DNA of 58,851 bases, taken from positions 1 through 58,851 of the forward strand of contig PCXL01000011.1 of assembly GCA_002787695.1 (NCBI GenBank), in the 5' to 3' direction. Shown here piece after piece: positions 4,894 through 14,379 of this stretch. The notes under the pieces are model-generated. The model was not told the DNA's origin and did no database searches. It saw only the letters and a list, made by a program, of their open reading frames with translations. The translations under genes were made by a program, and so were the position numbers. Positions within the stretch are counted from its first letter, which is position 1; each line of letters starts with the position of its first letter. This DNA comes from Candidatus Zambryskibacteria bacterium CG10_big_fil_rev_8_21_14_0_10_42_12. Lineage in GTDB: Bacteria; Patescibacteriota; Minisyncoccia; Phycocordibacterales; 1-14-0-10-42-12.

Positions 4894-5904
4894 TTACATA
4901 ATAATATTCGGTTCAATTTCTAACATAATGTTGTATTTTTCTTTGATAGCATTTTGTATTTTTGTGACAAGAGTTGTGAGATCGTGAAAATTGCCTCCTC
5001 TATTAATCACGACTAACGCATTGTGCTCATATGTCCCAACAGGTCCAGGAAATCCTTTGAAACCAGTCTGCTCCAAAAGCCAGCCAGCAGGAATTTTATA
5101 GAGACCATCTGGTTCAATAAAATAGGGTGCCTTAGGAAACTGTTGGATAAACCGCACTCCTGCTTCTTTTGAGAGTCTCGGATTTTTGAAAAAAGAACCA
5201 CTATTTGGAATGAGTTTTGGATCGGGAAGTTTTGTTTTTCTAATTTCAATAATTGTATTTCTGATATCTGAGAGGGACGGTGTCTCGATTCCTTTTTCTG
5301 AAAGTTTTTCTGTAACTCCTTTGTAGGAGGGAATGGGCGTCTGATCGGTAGGATTCATTTTTTTGAGTGTGAGCGTAATGCTTGTGACGACAAATCTTCC
5401 GGGTATATGTTTAAACAAGCTGTCTCTGTAACCGAAAGAACAGTCTTTGTTTTGAATATCTGTAAACTCTTTTTTATCTCTATCGTAGACATGAACGTGC
5501 ACCAACACATCTCTGATCTCGCTTCCGTAGGCGCCAACATTTTGGATGGGTGTTGCGCCGACACTTCCCGGTATGGCAGAAAGCGCTTCAATGCCTTGGT
5601 AGCCGTGTCTTACTGCGTGTGCGACCAATTGGTCCCACGAAACACCTGTACCTATCTCTAAAGTAATAGTATCTGTATTCTCATGAACTGTATTGATGCC
5701 TGGGATATCAATTTTACCAATGGTTAGATCGTGATGGATATCGCTGAAAAGAGTATTGCTGCCACCGCCTAAAATAAATAATGTGTCGCCATAAGACTCA
5801 AGTAGACGTATAAGATCTTCTTTTTGTTGGATATGCTCTATCTTATTTACAGTCCCTCCTATATGCATAGTGAGATATGGACGAATTGACGCTGGGGATG
5901 ACAT
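4894..5904 (-). CDS. murB: UDP-N-acetylmuramate dehydrogenase
   Basis: LTMHIGG, LGGGSNTL, IPGSVGATPIQNVGAYG, FGYRDSLFK, NSGSFFKNP, GWLLEQ, EHNALV, LEIEP. Start uncertain (ORF track 5934; ATG 5904 preferred). Confidence 0.95.
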   Translation of the reverse strand: MSSPASIRPYLTMHIGGTVNKIEHIQQKEDLIRLLESYGDTLFILGGGSNTLFSDIHHDLTIGKIDIPGINTVHENTDTITLEIGTGVSWDQLVAHAVRHGYQGIEALSAIPGSVGATPIQNVGAYGSEIRDVLVHVHVYDRDKKEFTDIQNKDCSFGYRDSLFKHIPGRFVVTSITLTLKKMNPTDQTPIPSYKGVTEKLSEKGIETPSLSDIRNTIIEIRKTKLPDPKLIPNSGSFFKNPRLSKEAGVRFIQQFPKAPYFIEPDGLYKIPAGWLLEQTGFKGFPGPVGTYEHNALVVINRGGNFHDLTTLVTKIQNAIKEKYNIMLEIEPNIIM

Positions 5905-5959
5905 ATATATCATATATGATATATTAAATTTCATTAAAAAACTTCACCCTGCCTGTGAA

Positions 5960-6056
5960 AAACATATCTTAGTTACGAGATACTCGTCTCGACCTCATGA
6001 TAGCTTCGGCTATCCTTCGGTCTCCGACTCGATCTCTCACTGACAGATATGTGTTT
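5960..6056. repeat. Long imperfect hairpin in the murB/murA divergent spacer
   Basis: ACATATCT/AGATATGT outer stem, nested GAGAT/ATCTC and GACC/GGTC stems, apical GATAGC-TTCG-GCTATC. Confidence 0.55.
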
Positions 6057-6096
6057 CTCGGCTTGGGGACCTAACTTTTTTAATGAAATTATCCTT

Positions 6097-7608
6097 ATGA
6101 CGAATCAAGAACAAATAGCGTATTTTATTAGGTCTCTCAGGGAACAGAGGGGGCTCACACAACAAGAATTTGCAAAACGACTCGGCACTTCGCAAAGTGC
6201 AGTAGCTCGTATGGAAGCCGGAAAGCAAAATTTTACCGCCAAAGAATTATCAAAAATAAGTGATGCGCTTGAACATAAAATAATTTCTCTTGATGATTCT
6301 ATCGATTTTCGCATTACGGGTGGTAAGAAACTTTCGGGTTCAATTGAAACAAATACCTCTAAGAATGGAGCACTCGGCCTTATGTGTGCCGCACTGGTAA
6401 ACAAGGGTAAAACAACACTTCATGGTATTCCTCGTATCGAGGAGGTTAATCGGCTCATAGAAATATTTGAAAGTATAGGAATCTCTGTTATTTGGGTTGA
6501 TGAACGATCTCTTGAAATAAAACCTCCAAAGAAATTTTTATTACAAAATTTAGACGAGAAAGCTGCGAGCCGTATTCGTTCAGTACTTATGATGATAGGA
6601 CCCCTCCTGCATCATGTGGGGCACTTTACGATCCCACATGCGGGAGGTTGCAAGATGGGCAATAGAACTATTGAAGCACATAGGCACGGGCTCCAGGCGC
6701 TTGGTGCAAAGATTGTCACGAAGAGTACCCATTATGATGTTTCCGTAAAAAAAATGAAGCCAGCGGAGATCGTCATGTATGAAGCGAGCGATACCGCTAC
6801 GGAAAATATTTTGATGGCGGCCGCACTCGTTCCTGGTAAAACAGTTATTGAATTTGCACCACCAAACTATCAGGTGCAAGATGTCTGTTTCTTTTTAGAG
6901 AAACTAGGGGTAACAATTGAAGGAATCGGCAGTACGACACTCACTGTTCATGGTCTCTCTGACATTAATCAGAGTGTTGAATATACAAACAGTGAAGACC
7001 CTATTGAAGCCATGATGTTTATTTCTGCTGCGATTACAACTGGTTCAGAGCTTACGATTACTCGGGCGCCTATAGATTTTCTAAAGTTAGAGCTTTTAAA
7101 ACTTCAGAAAATGGGACTTACATACAAAATAGAAAAAGAATATTTTTCACACAATGGACGTACAAAACTGGTTGATATCATTGTGTACCCGTCAAAACTT
7201 AAGGCTGTGGGCGACAAAATCCACGCACTTCCATATCCGGGGATCAATACAGACAATCTTCCGTTTTTTGTACCGATTGCAACTCAGGCACAGGGGACAA
7301 CCATGATCCATGATTGGATGTGGGAAAATAGGGCAATTTATTTTACAGAGCTTAATCGACTTGGCGCTTCGGTTGTTCTCGCTGACCCGCATCGTGTATT
7401 TATTCAAGGGCCCACGAAACTTAAGAGCGCACAGGTTGTCTGTCCTCCTGCACTTCGTCCTGCAGTTATTATCTTGATCGGCATGCTTGCTGCAGAGGGC
7501 GTTTCGATGTTGCGCAATGTTTATTCGATCAGTCGTGGATATGAGGATATTGCAAAGCGATTAAATAGTATTGGGGCTCAAATAGAGGTGGTGCACGGAC
7601 ATATGTAA
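6097..7608 (+). CDS. murA: XRE-HTH / UDP-N-acetylglucosamine 1-carboxyvinyltransferase fusion
   Basis: N-terminal IRSLREQRGLTQQEFAKRLGTSQSAVARMEAG (XRE HTH); then SKNGAL, GGCKMGNR (catalytic Cys), PYPG, ENRAIY, LRPA, SRGYED. ATG 6097 preferred to 6049. Confidence 0.93.
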   Translation: MTNQEQIAYFIRSLREQRGLTQQEFAKRLGTSQSAVARMEAGKQNFTAKELSKISDALEHKIISLDDSIDFRITGGKKLSGSIETNTSKNGALGLMCAALVNKGKTTLHGIPRIEEVNRLIEIFESIGISVIWVDERSLEIKPPKKFLLQNLDEKAASRIRSVLMMIGPLLHHVGHFTIPHAGGCKMGNRTIEAHRHGLQALGAKIVTKSTHYDVSVKKMKPAEIVMYEASDTATENILMAAALVPGKTVIEFAPPNYQVQDVCFFLEKLGVTIEGIGSTTLTVHGLSDINQSVEYTNSEDPIEAMMFISAAITTGSELTITRAPIDFLKLELLKLQKMGLTYKIEKEYFSHNGRTKLVDIIVYPSKLKAVGDKIHALPYPGINTDNLPFFVPIATQAQGTTMIHDWMWENRAIYFTELNRLGASVVLADPHRVFIQGPTKLKSAQVVCPPALRPAVIILIGMLAAEGVSMLRNVYSISRGYEDIAKRLNSIGAQIEVVHGHM

Positions 7609-7622
7609 AAAGGAAGAGCCGG

Positions 7623-8441
7623 CTACCTTGTGTTGCCGGCCCCGTTTTGAACGAGTACAAGATTTCTCCTGTTGCTTCGTTCGGTCTTATGATCGCGATG
7701 TTGACTGTAAAGAAAGCCATCACCACAGGCAATCGTGCAGATTTTATTGCATGCTACACGATTGGTATCTCCTCCCGCTTCAGCGAAGAGTTGTCTGATG
7801 AGCGAATAGAGAGCGACGGACTTAAAGTTGTCAGTGCCCTCATACTTTGTCAGAAACCTCCTCAATTCGGGATGCGTTTTCTCTTGCAATTCATACGGCA
7901 AGTTGTGGGCACCGGCCGTAATGAAGGCCTGAAGTGTCGCAGGATCTGCTCCCAGCGCATTGATGAGATTGTCTACAACTCCTCGTGCAAGTGACAAGAG
8001 ACCGCAGTGGACAACACCGAGTCGTTTGCGGCTTGGGTCCCACACGAGTAATGTGGGACAGTCTGCTGAGCTAAGAGCGAAGGTCTGTCCTCTTTCAAGG
8101 ATGAGCCCGTCTGCCATAACTGGCGGATTGCCTCTCCACAGTCTGAATGGGTGATCTTCATGCAAACGGTATCCCTTGGTAAGCAGGGATTGGTTTGGTG
8201 TTACGAGCCCGTTAAACGTTGAGGGATTTGGAGCAAAGGCATCGGTGATGCCTCGTTCTGACGCGAGTCTCGAGAGGTGCCATAAACGTTGCGCGCAAAT
8301 TCCGGGATCACCGTGGGGACTGATCGCTTTGAAACTCCAGTCCAAATTCTCCTTATCTTGAAGGGCGCGAGGCCCAAAGAGTGAAGTGGTTACACCGCCA
8401 AAGAGTCGAAGCTCTTCGACAGGTGTGTATTGTTTGTGCAT
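7623..8441 (-). CDS. pgeF: YfiH/PgeF (laccase-domain) family protein, divergent
   Basis: ADGLIL, SADCPTLL, VHCG (HAG variant), CTIAC...YSQHR, RNL. The ORF-track TTG at 8480 coincides with the -35 box, so ATG 8441 is preferred. Confidence 0.75.
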   Translation of the reverse strand: MHKQYTPVEELRLFGGVTTSLFGPRALQDKENLDWSFKAISPHGDPGICAQRLWHLSRLASERGITDAFAPNPSTFNGLVTPNQSLLTKGYRLHEDHPFRLWRGNPPVMADGLILERGQTFALSSADCPTLLVWDPSRKRLGVVHCGLLSLARGVVDNLINALGADPATLQAFITAGAHNLPYELQEKTHPELRRFLTKYEGTDNFKSVALYSLIRQLFAEAGGDTNRVACNKICTIACGDGFLYSQHRDHKTERSNRRNLVLVQNGAGNTR

Positions 8442-8451
8442 TCCGTCAAAT

Positions 8452-8480
8452 ACGGTAATACAAATAATTAATACTGTCAA
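8452..8480 (-). promoter_or_regulatory. Sigma70-type promoter of pgeF
   Basis: TTGACA (8480-8475)-17 nt-TACCGT (8457-8452), 10 nt before ATG 8441. Confidence 0.55.
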
Positions 8481-9239
8481 TCAAAAGAGTCTTTTATCTT
8501 CTTTAAAACGATCAATATTGTCTACCACATGGTGCTCATCGTTGCGGCTTATGGTGCGCAGGTGTTTTATGTCTGTATTCCAGATATTACCGTCCCAAAA
8601 TTCAAGTGAATCAAAATTAGTTTTATACAACGCCTTGTCGCCATATACAGTACCGATGTAATAGTGTGTCTTGCCGGCTGACTGTGCTTCACGTATGCAG
8701 TCGAGCATAATCCAAAGCCCTAATGATTCATACGCATATATTAAATCGTAAAATGAGTACCAATAGTGTGACATGATTCCATCATCAATTTCTAGTGCAT
8801 AACCAACGATGTTCTGTGTATCTTTGTGCGTATAGGTGATCACAAAAATTGGGAAACCAGATGCAAGAATCGTCGAGAATCTTTCTTTAGGCATAACGTG
8901 TGGCCCGTGTCGTTTTGCAAAATATTCAATACAGAAAGAAATAAATTGATTGTTTGTATAATCAAAATCTGCAAGTGGAGTTTTGGAGCGTACAAGTTGT
9001 CCATCAAATTTTTTGGCGACACGCCGATTTTCACTATTTGGCGAAAATTTTTCTAAATTAACTCGTGCACTCCTCGCCATATAAAGTGTTTGTTTGATAT
9101 CAGAAGATCCGGTGTATGGTAAAAAACCTTGTTGGTATATATCTGACAAATTATCTCCATCTTCATAGATTGCATAATCACAGTAACCAAATGAGTATGA
9201 TGTATATGAATGAACAAATTCACTTTTAAAAATCTTCAT
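8481..9239 (-). CDS. Arginyl-tRNA-protein transferase / Bpt-like (ATE_N + ATE_C, GNAT fold) protein
   Basis: YSFYD...SLGLWIML..I..A...G...YYIG.......YK..F..LE matches the ATE_C/Bpt pattern; QQGF...RV....F.P...NRR..KK matches ATE_N. ATG 9239 overlaps the upstream ligase end. Confidence 0.7.
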   Translation of the reverse strand: MKIFKSEFVHSYTSYSFGYCDYAIYEDGDNLSDIYQQGFLPYTGSSDIKQTLYMARSARVNLEKFSPNSENRRVAKKFDGQLVRSKTPLADFDYTNNQFISFCIEYFAKRHGPHVMPKERFSTILASGFPIFVITYTHKDTQNIVGYALEIDDGIMSHYWYSFYDLIYAYESLGLWIMLDCIREAQSAGKTHYYIGTVYGDKALYKTNFDSLEFWDGNIWNTDIKHLRTISRNDEHHVVDNIDRFKEDKRLF

Positions 9240-10647
9240 GATGTTTAGGATAATTATGTTCAATAAAATCAGGAAGCAGACCAATGAGTCCTCCAAGGTT
9301 GCCTGATGTGACAAGGACAATCAGATCGTCCGGGTGTACCAATTCTTTTATTTTGTCGAGCGCTTCAGTTGATGAGTGAACAGCAAAAACTTTCGTGTTG
9401 TGTTGCTGTATGCGCGCAATGATTTCATCCAATGTTAGCTGGTCATGTGTGTCAGCGCCCTGGGTTGATGGTTCGTATACCAGGACAGTATCACTCGTAT
9501 CAAATACGTCGTCATAGTTGTGGATGTACGCTCTGTTACGCCAGCTGAATGTATGTGGCTCAAAGATGGTGAGTATTCTTCTTTGAGGGAAGTGGGTGTG
9601 GAGAGCAGCAAATGCAGTCTTGGCTTTCTCATACGATGAACCAAATGTCTCATATACTGATATAGAAGAATTCTGCGTTAATAATTCGAGTCTCCTCTTT
9701 ACTCCTTTAAACGTTGAAACTGCATGTTGAAATACTTCAGGCGAGATAATATTTTTTGGAAGCAGACATGCCGCTGCTGCTAGGATATTTTCAACATTGT
9801 GTTTACCTAAAAGTGTTGTGTCTATATCAATAATAGGTTGCTTTTTGTGCATCAGCGTAAAGGTGGTTGTTGTGCCAAATGAAATGGCCGTTGCGGACCA
9901 GTCGGCTTCTTCTGAAAAACCGTACGACGTTTTGTGTCCCGCAAAATTTTTACTGATGTCTGTTGCGTATTTTTCGTCAGCGTGGATTAAGGTGCCATTC
10001 TGTGGAATTGATTGCACTAATAACTTGAATGGTTCTAAGTATGATTCGTGCGTAGGAAAAATATTGATATGGTCGTGGATGGCACTTGTTAATACGACGT
10101 GGTCAGGCTTGTAATACAAAAATTTAGATGTGTTATCCCAGTTTGCTGACGGATACTCATCGCCTTCTAAAATAAAAAAATGGCCACTGCCGATATGACC
10201 ATGCATTGGAAAGTCATGAGTTACTTCACCGATGAAATAGCTAGGGTCTTGGTTAGCATCTGTCAGGCACCACGCGATAAGAGCAGTAAGCGTAGATTTT
10301 CCATATGAGCCGGCAACAACTATTCGTTCTTTATTTTTAGAAATTTCTTGAAGAATTTCTGGAAATGATTGTGTTGGTATATTGCGTCTTTTTGCTTCTG
10401 CTACTTCTGGATTTAATTCCGGAGTTAGACGTGCATTTTTTCCTATAATCACCACATCGACGTCATCCGGAATGTTGTCGGCGGCATAGTTTTTATTGTA
10501 TAGAATGCCGTATTGGTCGAGATATGTGCTCACAGGTGGATATGCACCTTCGTCAGATCCTGTGACCTCCCAACCGAGCTGTTTTAGCATAAGCGCAACA
10601 GCACTCATGCCCTTGCCGGCAATCCCTATAAAGTGAACTTTTTTCAT
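9226..10647 (-). CDS. mpl: Mur ligase, Mpl-like (UDP-MurNAc:tripeptide ligase) or divergent MurC
   Basis: HFIGIAGKGMS, GSD..AYPP, AGSYGKST, EGDEY, SKFLYYKP, DH.NIF, FKGVKRR, FEPHTFS. YPP and SKF.hY.P resemble Mpl more than MurC. Confidence 0.75.
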   Translation of the reverse strand: MKKVHFIGIAGKGMSAVALMLKQLGWEVTGSDEGAYPPVSTYLDQYGILYNKNYAADNIPDDVDVVIIGKNARLTPELNPEVAEAKRRNIPTQSFPEILQEISKNKERIVVAGSYGKSTLTALIAWCLTDANQDPSYFIGEVTHDFPMHGHIGSGHFFILEGDEYPSANWDNTSKFLYYKPDHVVLTSAIHDHINIFPTHESYLEPFKLLVQSIPQNGTLIHADEKYATDISKNFAGHKTSYGFSEEADWSATAISFGTTTTFTLMHKKQPIIDIDTTLLGKHNVENILAAAACLLPKNIISPEVFQHAVSTFKGVKRRLELLTQNSSISVYETFGSSYEKAKTAFAALHTHFPQRRILTIFEPHTFSWRNRAYIHNYDDVFDTSDTVLVYEPSTQGADTHDQLTLDEIIARIQQHNTKVFAVHSSTEALDKIKELVHPDDLIVLVTSGNLGGLIGLLPDFIEHNYPKHHEDF

Positions 10648-11252: not shown

Positions 11253-12551
11253 ATGGCGCGTAAACCTCTATCTCGTACAGGTGTTTTTGTGATAAGCACC
11301 TTTGGGGTTTTACTTATTGCATTTGTAATTTACACAGTTCCCAAGTTATCTCAATTTACCTACGAATCAATTGATGTTGCGGGACTAGAGGAAGAAATGG
11401 TCTCAGAAGTAGATGTAATAAAAAAGAATGTATATAAAGCAAAACATCTAAAAACCCCCGATGCGGTGAAGGCAATTTATATGACAAGTTGGATTGCGGG
11501 CACGCCGTCTTTGCGGCAATCTCGTGTTATTGATGTGATTGATACAACAGAGATCAACAGTGTGGTAATTGATATTAAAGATGATACGGGTAAAATTTCA
11601 TTTATTACGGATGACCCGATGATTGAAGAACTTGGTTGGTCCGAGAATCGTGTGGCAGACATGAAAGATCTTATTGAAATGCTTCATGAGAAAGATATTT
11701 ACGTGATCGGACGACTGGCTGTGTTCCAAGATCCCTATATGACAAAAACGCGACCGGATCTTGCAGCAAAGTTTGCAAGTGATCCAACGAAAGTTTGGAC
11801 AGACAGAAAGGGGCTTTCGTGGATTGATCCGGGCGCTAAGGAATATTGGGATATGATTGCACGCATCGCGTTTGCTGCGCATCGCATAGGCTTTGATGAA
11901 ATAAATTTTGATTACATACGGTTTCCGTCAGACGGTAATGTGGACGATATTTATTATCCGTTTAGTGGCAATCGTATACTTGCATCCTCTTTTCATATGG
12001 AGAAGGCGAGAATTATCCAAGAGTTTTGGAAATATTTGTATGACGAAGTGCGGAATGGAAAAGACCCTATTACGGGAGACAAGTTTGAAGGGAAAATTTC
12101 AGCCGATATTTTTGGCATGACCACGACTGCGAGTGATGATATGCGGATTGGGCAAGTGTTTGAATATGCACTTCCGTATTTTGATTATATTGCACCGATG
12201 GTGTATCCGTCACATTATCCGACAGGCTTTTACGGAATTACTAATGTAAACGCTGTTCCCGGCACAGTGATATCTATTTCAATGGGTGAGGCGGTGCGTA
12301 GAGTGGAAGCGACAAGTACGATTCATTTGTTACCAGGCGAATCACAGATTGCATCTTCTACTTTGTTTACTAAAAAGTCATATGACAGAAACAAGCTACG
12401 TCCATGGCTGCAGGACAATGATTATCCGGTTCATTACACAGCCGAGATGGTCCGTGCACAGATAGATGCAAGCGAAGCACTTGGACTGAACTCTTGGATG
12501 CTCTGGGATCCTGCAAATACATATACAATTTCTGCGTTATTACCAGAATAG
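11253..12551 (+). CDS. Putative glycoside hydrolase, DUF4015 family, membrane-anchored
   Basis: KAIYMT, VIDIKDDTG, GFDEINFDYIRFP, SADIFG, PMVYPSHY, LRPWLQD, WMLWDPANTY. Confidence 0.85.
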   Translation: MARKPLSRTGVFVISTFGVLLIAFVIYTVPKLSQFTYESIDVAGLEEEMVSEVDVIKKNVYKAKHLKTPDAVKAIYMTSWIAGTPSLRQSRVIDVIDTTEINSVVIDIKDDTGKISFITDDPMIEELGWSENRVADMKDLIEMLHEKDIYVIGRLAVFQDPYMTKTRPDLAAKFASDPTKVWTDRKGLSWIDPGAKEYWDMIARIAFAAHRIGFDEINFDYIRFPSDGNVDDIYYPFSGNRILASSFHMEKARIIQEFWKYLYDEVRNGKDPITGDKFEGKISADIFGMTTTASDDMRIGQVFEYALPYFDYIAPMVYPSHYPTGFYGITNVNAVPGTVISISMGEAVRRVEATSTIHLLPGESQIASSTLFTKKSYDRNKLRPWLQDNDYPVHYTAEMVRAQIDASEALGLNSWMLWDPANTYTISALLPE

Positions 12552-12588
12552 ATCAAAATAATTTTGCTATACTTTAAGCAAGATTCTC

Positions 12589-14379
12589 ATGGATAACCAA
12601 GAGCAGATCACATATTTTGCGGAGACAGATGCACGTGGTAAACGTGTACCTTTTGGTATAAAAGCAAAAGATAGAACAAAGCACATGTATGTGATCGGCA
12701 AAACTGGTATGGGTAAGTCAACACTACTTGAGAATTTGGCAATCCAAGATATTAAAAACGGAAACGGGCTTTGCTTTATGGATCCGCACGGAAAGACTGC
12801 AGAATTACTCCTTGAGTACATTCCAAAGGAGCGCATGGATGATGTATTGTATTTTGCACCATTTGACCTCGATAACCCTATTTCGTTTAACATTATGGAA
12901 GATGTCGGATATGACAAGCGCCATTTGGTTGTGTCTGGACTCATGTCTGCCTTTAAGAAAATTTGGCTAGATGCATGGAGTGCTCGTATGGAGTATATTC
13001 TCACGAATACACTTCTGGCACTTCTTGAATACCCGGATGCGACACTGCTGTCGGTTAATCGTATGTATACGGACAAGGCGTATCGTAAAAAAGTAGTTGA
13101 AAATGTGACAGATGCGACGGTAAAAGCTTTTTGGACAGAAGAGTTTGCAAACTATACGGACAGATTTACACAAGATGCAACCCCGGCTATTCAAAACAAA
13201 GTTGGACAATTCACCTCGAACCCGGTTATCCGCAACATCATTGGACAACCGAAATCTTCTTTCGATCTTCGTGAAATCATGGATCAGAAAAAGATTTTAA
13301 TCGTGAACCTTTCCAAGGGGCGCGTAGGGGAAACAAATGCGAATCTGCTCGGTAGTATGCTCATCACCAAGATCTATCTGGCCGCTATGAGCAGAGCAGA
13401 TGCGGGAGATCAAGCGATTTCCAAAATGCCAAATTTCTACCTGTATGTGGACGAATTTCAGTCTTTTGCCAATGAATCGTTTGCAGATATTCTCTCAGAG
13501 GCACGTAAATATAAGCTTAACCTCACGATGGCGCACCAGTATATCGAACAAATGGCGGAAGAAGTGCGTTCGGCAGTCTTTGGAAACGTAGGAACGATGA
13601 TCACGTTTCGTGTGGGTGCCTATGATGCTGAAGTTTTAGAAAAAGAATTTGCACCCGTGTTTACCGCAGAAGATTTAGTGAATCTAGGGTTTACACAGAT
13701 TTATCTCAAACTCATGATTGATGGGGTATCGAGTCAGCCGTTTTCTGCAACAACTCTTCCTCCCTTACCTCATCCGGAAGATTCTCTTGTAGAAAATCTC
13801 ATAAAATCCTCTAAAGAGAAATTTGGTAAACCACGTGCTGAAGTTGAACAGGCTATACATGAATGGTATCAGGATGGCGCAAAACCTGCTCAAAATGAGC
13901 AAAAAAAAGATACAAAAGATGTGTCTGCGAAAAAAGATATTGGCACACATGATAGTCGTTCACATAAACCAATTTCAGATAAACCAAGAGACAAGAAACC
14001 TCATGTGCACGAGGTGCCCAAGATGGACGGCGCGACATCTATTAAAGAAGCAATGGAAAAAGCTCTCGATAGGACAGATGACAAAGGAAATTCTGAAAAA
14101 AATGAATCATTGCCACTTTCAACGCTTTTAAGTGACAAACAAAAGAAAGCTAACCCATCACCAGAGAAGGTGTCTTCTCTCAAGGATGCACTCTCTGAAC
14201 TCATGAAAAAGCATCCTCAGAACAATAGTCAAAAACAAAAAAGAAATGATGTTCCTCCTAAAAAAGTGGAGAGACGGGAAGCACAAAAAAGTGATCAACA
14301 GGTGACCGCCAATGAAAGTTCTCACAAAGAACAGGCAGGAGTTTCCCCTGATGAGCTCAAGAAAATTTTTGCAGATTAG
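12589..14379 (+). CDS. Type IV secretion coupling-protein-like ATPase (VirD4/TrwB family) with charged C-terminal tail
   Basis: Walker A GKTGMGKS, MDPHG, Walker B LYVDEFQ, SEARKY, AHQY..Q, FGNVGT. Confidence 0.88.
   Translation: MDNQEQITYFAETDARGKRVPFGIKAKDRTKHMYVIGKTGMGKSTLLENLAIQDIKNGNGLCFMDPHGKTAELLLEYIPKERMDDVLYFAPFDLDNPISFNIMEDVGYDKRHLVVSGLMSAFKKIWLDAWSARMEYILTNTLLALLEYPDATLLSVNRMYTDKAYRKKVVENVTDATVKAFWTEEFANYTDRFTQDATPAIQNKVGQFTSNPVIRNIIGQPKSSFDLREIMDQKKILIVNLSKGRVGETNANLLGSMLITKIYLAAMSRADAGDQAISKMPNFYLYVDEFQSFANESFADILSEARKYKLNLTMAHQYIEQMAEEVRSAVFGNVGTMITFRVGAYDAEVLEKEFAPVFTAEDLVNLGFTQIYLKLMIDGVSSQPFSATTLPPLPHPEDSLVENLIKSSKEKFGKPRAEVEQAIHEWYQDGAKPAQNEQKKDTKDVSAKKDIGTHDSRSHKPISDKPRDKKPHVHEVPKMDGATSIKEAMEKALDRTDDKGNSEKNESLPLSTLLSDKQKKANPSPEKVSSLKDALSELMKKHPQNNSQKQKRNDVPPKKVERREAQKSDQQVTANESSHKEQAGVSPDELKKIFAD

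Follow-up and report, generated by a model that had tools for sequence, protein, structure and literature searches.

The window analyzed here, a stretch of 58,851 nucleotides from a Patescibacteria genome (675 kb, 98% complete), contains a minus-strand operon of three genes. The first gene (9226..10647, minus strand) encodes a Mur ligase of the MurC/Mpl family with 473 amino acids and three Mur-ligase domains, which is referred to as the partner ligase. It is followed by a gene (8481..9239, minus strand) for a 252-aa protein without a Cys cluster that Pfam ATE_C and the AlphaFold2 (AF2) fold identify as a putative aminoacyl-tRNA transferase similar to ATE1/Bpt (ATE-like protein). The third gene (7623..8480, minus strand; likely true start, ATG 8441) codes for a divergent PgeF/YfiH-like protein with a Cu-oxidase_4 match. 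The genes murA and murB are located immediately beside this operon, in line with a previous sequence-only reading that had placed the transferase in a cell wall cluster. MurB (4894..5934, minus strand) scored 312 bits with NF000755 (cut-off, 277). MurA (6049..7608, plus strand) scored 175 bits with EPSP_synthase and exceeded the cut-off of the UDP-GlcNAc carboxyvinyltransferase subfamily model (354.6 bits). Judging from this context, both enzymes supply UDP-MurNAc, the substrate of the partner ligase. The full-length MurA is fused to an N-terminal XRE-type helix-turn-helix (HTH) of about 80 aa (HTH_3, 55 bits), an unusual combination of a DNA-binding domain and the first committed wall enzyme. 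Upstream of the operon, genes for a putative DUF4015 glycosyl hydrolase and a TraG/VirD4-like coupling ATPase are found (11253-14379, plus strand). Many related loci show both genes in this position, a pattern suggestive of conserved synteny and not of a functional link.

The open reading frame (ORF) of the ATE-like protein extends from ATG 9239 to TGA 8481. Its homologues all begin at an equivalent motif (MK.F.SE, i.e., M-K-x-F-x-S-E), so a TTG farther upstream (9320) was not considered to be the start. Direct reading of the sequence confirmed the reported 14-nt overlap of this start with the region ending in the ligase stop codon (9228-9226). Pfam ATE_C (PF04377) matched residues 105 to 214 with 30.3 bits (gathering score, 25), and the same precomputed match is present on most homologues; together with the ATE1-like fold described below, this upheld the proposed Arg/Leu-tRNA-protein transferase pattern. 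The suggested hidden Markov model (HMM) search was positive only in this part, as the Pfam search returned no match to ATE_N (PF04376). FemAB was not matched in Pfam either. The best NCBIfam arginyltransferase model reached 48.9 bits against a cut-off of 267, about one fifth of what is needed (range of the cut-offs, 170 to 267), and the protein therefore is a distant relative of arginyltransferases. The lack of an N-terminal Cys cluster extended to the family, since an alignment of 64 diverse homologues revealed no conserved cysteine column up to residue 70. A search of 1.84 billion proteins yielded 339 clusters at 50% identity, nearly all with a length of about 250 aa. Several sources name homologues arginyl- or leucyl-tRNA-protein transferases, and homologues were assigned to Saprospiraceae, Spirosomataceae, Cyclobacteriaceae, and the named Bacteroidota species Roseihalotalea indica, on contigs of up to 6.8 Mb. 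A dedicated search for longer, fused forms found none, which constitutes weak evidence. The sole fusion seen was an 809-aa protein (P0143) that joins an ATE-like homologue to PPDK_N and PEP-utilizer domains, and a PEP-utilizer gene is located directly downstream in another ATE-like locus (L018:2995-4443).

The transferase adopts a predicted ATE1-like fold

The AF2 model of the ATE-like protein, built on 64 homologues, showed a mean pLDDT of 97. A Foldseek search with this model returned ATE1 first (E = 9e-11), followed by FemX, MprF, Sba18/Sbb17, and the L/F-transferase. VIA-align resulted in a Z score of 17.8 with human ATE1 (226 residues aligned) and of 16.1 to 16.2 with Kluyveromyces lactis Ate1 (klAte1; 230 to 231 of 252 residues aligned). 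The N-terminal lobe superposed on ATE1 from residue 1 despite the missing ATE_N match. Weaker matches were obtained for MprF (Z of 13) and the Fem enzymes (Z of 11 to 12); the previously inferred relationship to the Fem fold was thus recovered, with FemX ranking behind ATE1. Because ATE1 was the best structural match along the whole length, the modeled protein is classified as a minimal ATE1/Bpt-type aminoacyl-tRNA transferase.

Four residues of the ATE-like protein (R56, R59, Y205, and K206) are conserved to 98 to 100% in the 64 homologues. R56 and R59 constitute a basic N-terminal pair (98 to 100%), and Y205-K206 (98%) is found in a K-x-x-Y-K context. In klAte1, Tyr303-Lys304 is the catalytic pair, and a basic pocket (Arg80) of ATE1/Bpt binds the acidic N-terminal residue, whose α-amine serves as the acceptor (PMC9351520). 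Y205-K206 and R56/R59 resemble this pair and this pocket, respectively, by motif only and without a residue-level superposition. A family profile run against the sequences of solved structures gave merely marginal GNAT and ATE1 matches (E of 1e-4 to 0.2), and the C-terminal half alone gave no match in that set. Residues were therefore not mapped onto the ATE1 pockets.

The partner ligase belongs to a separate clade

Pfam detected all three Mur-ligase domains in the partner ligase, the N-terminal one being of the MurC/Mpl type, and no further MurC/Mpl-type ligase is encoded in the source genome. Among the curated models, TIGR01082 (murC) scored best, with 266 bits (cut-off, 335, not met), and TIGR01081 (mpl) scored 226 bits (cut-off, 389, not met). 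Canonical MurC proteins of the same class reach 340 to 468 bits with the murC model. The E. coli Mpl sequence matched the partner ligase better (182 bits) than did E. coli MurC (147 bits). The linkage to mpl or murC that had been suggested as a check thus holds for the MurC/Mpl family and not for either enzyme by its curated cut-off.

In a maximum-likelihood tree, 55 ligases linked to ATE-like genes formed one clade (SH-aLRT, 100), and the canonical MurC proteins of the class grouped with E. coli MurC, apart from this clade. In a second tree, the ligases from outside Patescibacteria grouped together (100), with the ATE-linked clade of Patescibacteria (99) as their sister group (83). The position of E. 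coli Mpl next to the ATE-linked ligases was supported in one tree (93) and appeared as a polytomy in the other. Its three domains and the type of its N-terminal domain connect the partner ligase with MurC and Mpl, but on sequence grounds it is predicted to be neither of them, falling below both cut-offs and representing its own clade across three phyla.

Transferase and ligase genes are conserved as a pair

The ATE-like ORF was found in 75 of the 80 genomic loci searched. In 52 of these, the ligase gene immediately precedes it on the same strand; in 3, the ligase gene is two genes upstream, and in 1, it follows directly. It is thus adjoining or near in 56 of 75 loci, with frequent overlaps of 4 or 14 nt, and the two genes are tightly coupled at the translation level. 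The outcome that would have refuted the earlier hypothesis, a lack of conserved linkage to mur genes, was therefore not observed. Outside Patescibacteria, the two genes usually are not adjacent. The neighborhoods of unlinked ATE-like copies were examined and gave no signal, and no other conserved neighbor able to add Glu was found in the 75 loci.

A glutamate racemase or racemase-like gene flanks the pair in three loci (L072, L017, and L024), a class-IV aminotransferase gene does so in four, and an alanine racemase gene does so in one. Such flanking racemases and aminotransferases could be the producers of D-Glu in several genomes. The class-IV aminotransferases could not be assigned to either the D-amino acid or the branched-chain enzymes. 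RsmI-type methylase, PheRS subunits, GyrB, the CCA-adding enzyme, and fasciclin were recurrent neighbors of the housekeeping type that look like plain synteny and were rejected as partners.

The PgeF-like protein of the third gene reached the Pfam threshold of the YfiH/PgeF family (Cu-oxidase_4, 57 bits) and remained far under the cut-off of the PgeF equivalog model TIGR00726 (37.7 bits; cut-off, 141). As the Pfam model was too insensitive for this divergent subfamily, we built a separate profile. A homologue is located beside the ligase/ATE-like pair, either 5′ of the ligase or 3′ of the transferase gene, in 25 of 75 loci, i.e., in only about a third of the modules. In the class sample, strong matches to our profile were restricted to G000 and G059; the gene therefore is enriched beside the pair and not obligatory. 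The coupling to pgeF that had been suggested was consequently retained as gene order and not as an identification of PgeF itself. D124, C141, and H158 are invariant in the alignment of 25 members. The canonical YfiH family possesses a His-Cys-His metal site; here, the invariant Asp takes the place of the first metal-binding His, and the invariant Cys and His are retained. The metal site of this subfamily may thus be changed.

MurC and MurD are absent from the examined genomes with the transferase

Only three Mur ligases are encoded in the source genome, namely, the partner ligase, MurE, and MurF; neither MurD nor a canonical MurC was detected above the curated cut-offs. Since mraY, ftsW, and murG are contiguous and leave no room for murD, the absence of the latter does not represent an assembly gap. 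In canonical relatives, murI often adjoins murD. The genome encodes Ddl and a class-IV aminotransferase. Searches of this 98%-complete genome for ClpS, glutamate racemase, and DUF1611 were negative, which also settles the earlier proposal to check for clpS.

Among the 42 other Patescibacteria genomes carrying the ATE-like gene, none showed MurD above the cut-off (0/42; best score, 87 bits) or canonical MurC (0/42). In a sample of 121 genomes of the class, MurD was above the cut-off in 98 and canonical MurC was present in 87. Related genomes in the carrier counts are not independent samples. A single MurC/Mpl-family ligase with 204 to 265 bits was detected in 40 of the 42 carriers; as an exception, G139 displayed a second, weaker match to this family (172 bits). 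The remaining two (G143 and G161) lacked any Mur ligase match and may represent incomplete bins or, alternatively, an enzyme that is able to work without the ligase. Within the class sample, the ATE-like gene was limited to G000 and G047, both of which are devoid of MurC and MurD. Thus, all genomes with an ATE-like gene that were examined are without both enzymes.

The reverse was not the case. About 20 other genomes of the class contain neither MurD nor the ATE-like gene, showing that the loss of MurD does not require the ATE-like/ligase module. Two Mur ligases only (MurE- and MurF-like), without MurC, MurD, or an ATE-like protein, were seen in the complete 0.65-Mb genome G018 and in G004, G014, and G079. 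Glutamate racemase was discarded as a discriminating marker because most genomes of the class are without it, irrespective of the presence of MurD, which also leaves the origin of D-Glu in them unclear.

The pattern was replicated in five carriers outside Patescibacteria (an Acidobacteriota chromosome, two Saprospiraceae, one Flavobacteriales, and one Cytophagales). MurD above the cut-off and canonical MurC were absent from all five (0/5 each), each possesses one MurC/Mpl-family ligase (209 to 243 bits), and a canonical Bpt (ATE_N) was not found in any of them. In three Bacteroidota carriers, the dcw cluster consists of abutting genes in the order ftsI-murE-mraY-ftsW-murG-ftsQ-ftsA-ftsZ, without murD or murC (ftsQ, ftsA, and ftsZ were named by length and position only). 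In one of these otherwise intact clusters, that of the Flavobacteriales carrier, a 160-aa ORF located between mraY and ftsW (L141:9145-9627, minus strand) aligns with MurD in the C-terminal domain alone (126 bits; model positions 285 to 440) and, from this partial match, looks like the decaying remnant of a murD gene. The 40 relatives of a Saprospiraceae carrier (G165) comprised 24 genomes with MurD above the cut-off and 13 without any MurD match. The ten relatives at the top of the list (G167 to G176; 3.9 to 5.4 Mb) are among the latter. MurD may thus be missing from an entire clade of free-living Bacteroidota around G165.

Discussion

MurC and MurD catalyze textbook essential steps, are near-universal, and are long-standing antibiotic targets. 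In light of their absence from the carriers, we regard it as probable that the partner ligase and the ATE-like transferase together substitute for both. With respect to the reactions involved, we lean, with only modest confidence, toward a tRNA-dependent bypass; its details are inferred, and no biochemistry exists. The transferase would move L-Ala from Ala-tRNA to D-Glu, resulting in L-Ala-D-Glu. The partner ligase would then attach this dipeptide to UDP-MurNAc by Mpl-type chemistry, providing the substrate of MurE. The donor, the acceptor, the order of the steps, and the contribution of the PgeF-like enzyme are all inferences. The latter probably would be an accessory proofreading hydrolase that acts on wrongly built precursors; canonical PgeF deals with an incorrect first residue that MurC has installed (PMC8844914).

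The proposed order of steps follows from chemical constraints. An aminoacyl-tRNA transferase delivers an activated carboxyl group to an amine, and neither UDP-MurNAc nor UDP-MurNAc-L-Ala possesses a free amine. For this reason, stem peptide elongation in the canonical direction is not open to the ATE-like enzyme, and only the synthesis of the dipeptide prior to its ligation fits. The α-amine of an acidic residue is the known acceptor of ATE1/Bpt; the same chemistry would be needed to acylate Glu, and this recognition, by analogy, fits Glu as the acceptor. The sequence-only reading had suggested peptidoglycan precursors or another envelope substrate. An envelope function agrees with the conserved mur linkage, the missing ClpS, and the ATE1-like fold; however, as the carriers are without MurC and MurD, free D-Glu is a more likely acceptor than a UDP-MurNAc-peptide or lipid II. 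Mpl couples ready-made peptides to UDP-MurNAc, and L-Ala-D-Glu is a weak substrate that it uses at a low rate (PMC3060825). Unlike Mpl, the partner ligase would be essential and not a recycling enzyme, since no other ligase of this type is present in the genomes without MurC and MurD.

Other explanations have to be considered. The transferase might act like a Fem enzyme and add an amino acid to the ε-amino group of Lys or diaminopimelate (DAP) in a UDP-MurNAc-peptide or lipid II, with the loss of MurC and MurD being covered otherwise. The fold is common to FemX/FemA (Z of about 11) and MprF, the gene is located inside a cell wall cluster, and tRNA-dependent peptidoglycan branching is an established precedent (PMC2655667). 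We nevertheless consider this unlikely, since it explains neither the absence of MurC and MurD from every carrier examined nor the partnership with a UDP-MurNAc-type ligase of its own clade, and since ATE1 is a clearly better match than Fem in the absence of a Pfam FemAB match. Alternatively, the pair might serve salvage: the ligase would reattach scavenged wall peptides in the manner of Mpl, and the transferase would repair trimmed ones, e.g., by transferring L-Ala onto γ-D-Glu-diamino acid. Patescibacteria are thought to be host dependent, some relatives keep only MurE and MurF, and the similarity of the ligase to Mpl is no lower than that to MurC. This idea is difficult to reconcile with the retention of MurE, which would be needless if tripeptides were attached, in the dcw cluster of all carriers examined at the locus level. 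Furthermore, 4- to 5-Mb Bacteroidota and an Acidobacteriota with a 5.1-Mb chromosome hardly qualify as scavengers of wall peptides, and salvage appears improbable to us.

We are equally doubtful that the ligase is merely a divergent MurC that adds L-Ala, with an unrecognized enzyme adding position 2 and the transferase using an unrelated envelope or small-molecule substrate. The source genome encodes no fourth Mur ligase and the carriers have at most three, a further conserved Glu-adding neighbor was missing from the 75 loci, and transferase and ligase are tightly coupled in translation. It remains conceivable because murC is the best curated model for the ligase (266 bits), the placement relative to MurC and Mpl is unresolved in one tree, and the PPDK_N/PEP-utilizer fusion of one homologue and the PEP-utilizer gene downstream in L018 could point to another substrate. 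A role in the N-degron pathway, in which Leu or Arg would be transferred onto proteins with N-terminal Asp or Glu for degradation by ClpS/ClpAP and the adjacency to mur genes would be due to chance, is the assignment that annotation would suggest, given that the protein matches no families better than Pfam ATE_C and NCBIfam arginyltransferase and that homologues carry the corresponding names in several sources. Yet ClpS was not found in the 98%-complete source genome, the ATE_N match and the Cys cluster are missing, the scores are far under the equivalog cut-offs, and both gene linkage and phyletic pattern go with cell wall genes, which makes this role very unlikely.

The proposed dipeptide synthase can be compared to several known systems. 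With ATE1/Bpt, it has in common the two-lobed GNAT-type fold over the whole length (Z of 16 to 18), ATE_C, and, by motif only, the conserved Tyr-Lys pair and the conserved basic N-terminal pocket. It differs in the absence of ATE_N, of the Cys cluster, and of a detectable ClpS partner, in its linkage to a Mur ligase, and in the proposed acceptor, which is a free amino acid instead of a protein. FemX, FemABX, and MurM possess a related fold, and Fem enzymes use aminoacyl-tRNA in cell wall peptide synthesis; however, they decorate the finished stem peptide at the Lys side chain, whereas the ATE-like enzyme would form the first core bond (L-Ala to D-Glu) before attachment to the sugar nucleotide. 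The aminoacyl-tRNA-dependent peptide synthases Sba18/Sbb17 (PDB 9wqy and 9wqw), which act on small-molecule amines, are structural matches with a Z of about 11, and this fold family has been solved with the small-molecule ligand streptothrisamine. In contrast to the proposed pair, they belong, by name, to streptothrisamine and not to primary cell wall synthesis, and they are more distant from the ATE-like protein than ATE1. A noncanonical route to stem position 2 (D-Glu) has been described for MurD2/MurL of Xanthomonas (PMC5808125). There, MurD2 is a MurD-type ligase that acts on UDP-MurNAc-L-Ala prior to epimerization; in contrast to the proposed pair, this route does without tRNA and keeps MurC.

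We found no description of a tRNA-dependent bypass of MurC and MurD in the literature searched; the absence of both enzymes from the carriers, the same finding in further phyla, and the model of a dipeptide intermediate are new. On balance, we slightly favor the view that in at least three phyla, including free-living Bacteroidota of 4 to 5 Mb, MurC and MurD have been replaced by a tRNA-dependent dipeptide synthase with the ATE1/Bpt fold and a dedicated ligase that joins the dipeptide to UDP-MurNAc, so that the core of the stem peptide is started from a charged tRNA. If true, this would constitute a nonorthologous displacement in the core of cell wall synthesis and a small-molecule substrate for ATE1/Bpt-type enzymes. 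Translation would be linked to the formation of the first peptidoglycan peptide bond, a new function of aminoacyl-tRNA in primary metabolism. Genome-based calls of an "incomplete" wall pathway would have to be corrected, which bears on the reading of Patescibacteria as wall-less or host dependent.

Two further gene arrangements were observed. In three genomes of the class that are without MurD, canonical MurC, and the ATE-like gene, the gene of a DgcN-like P-loop protein (DUF1611) is clustered with those of a MurC/Mpl-family ligase and a PLP enzyme similar to threonine synthase (L121:4638-8168, L122:3772-6785, and L123:4218-8137). The ligase of this cluster represents a separate, sister-type clade, and the cluster may be a second, nonhomologous bypass of the same steps. 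In one Flavobacteriales genome (L079:6222-7964, plus strand), the ATE-like gene is located directly downstream of the aspartyl-tRNA synthetase gene, a single case that could hint at a different donor in this genome.
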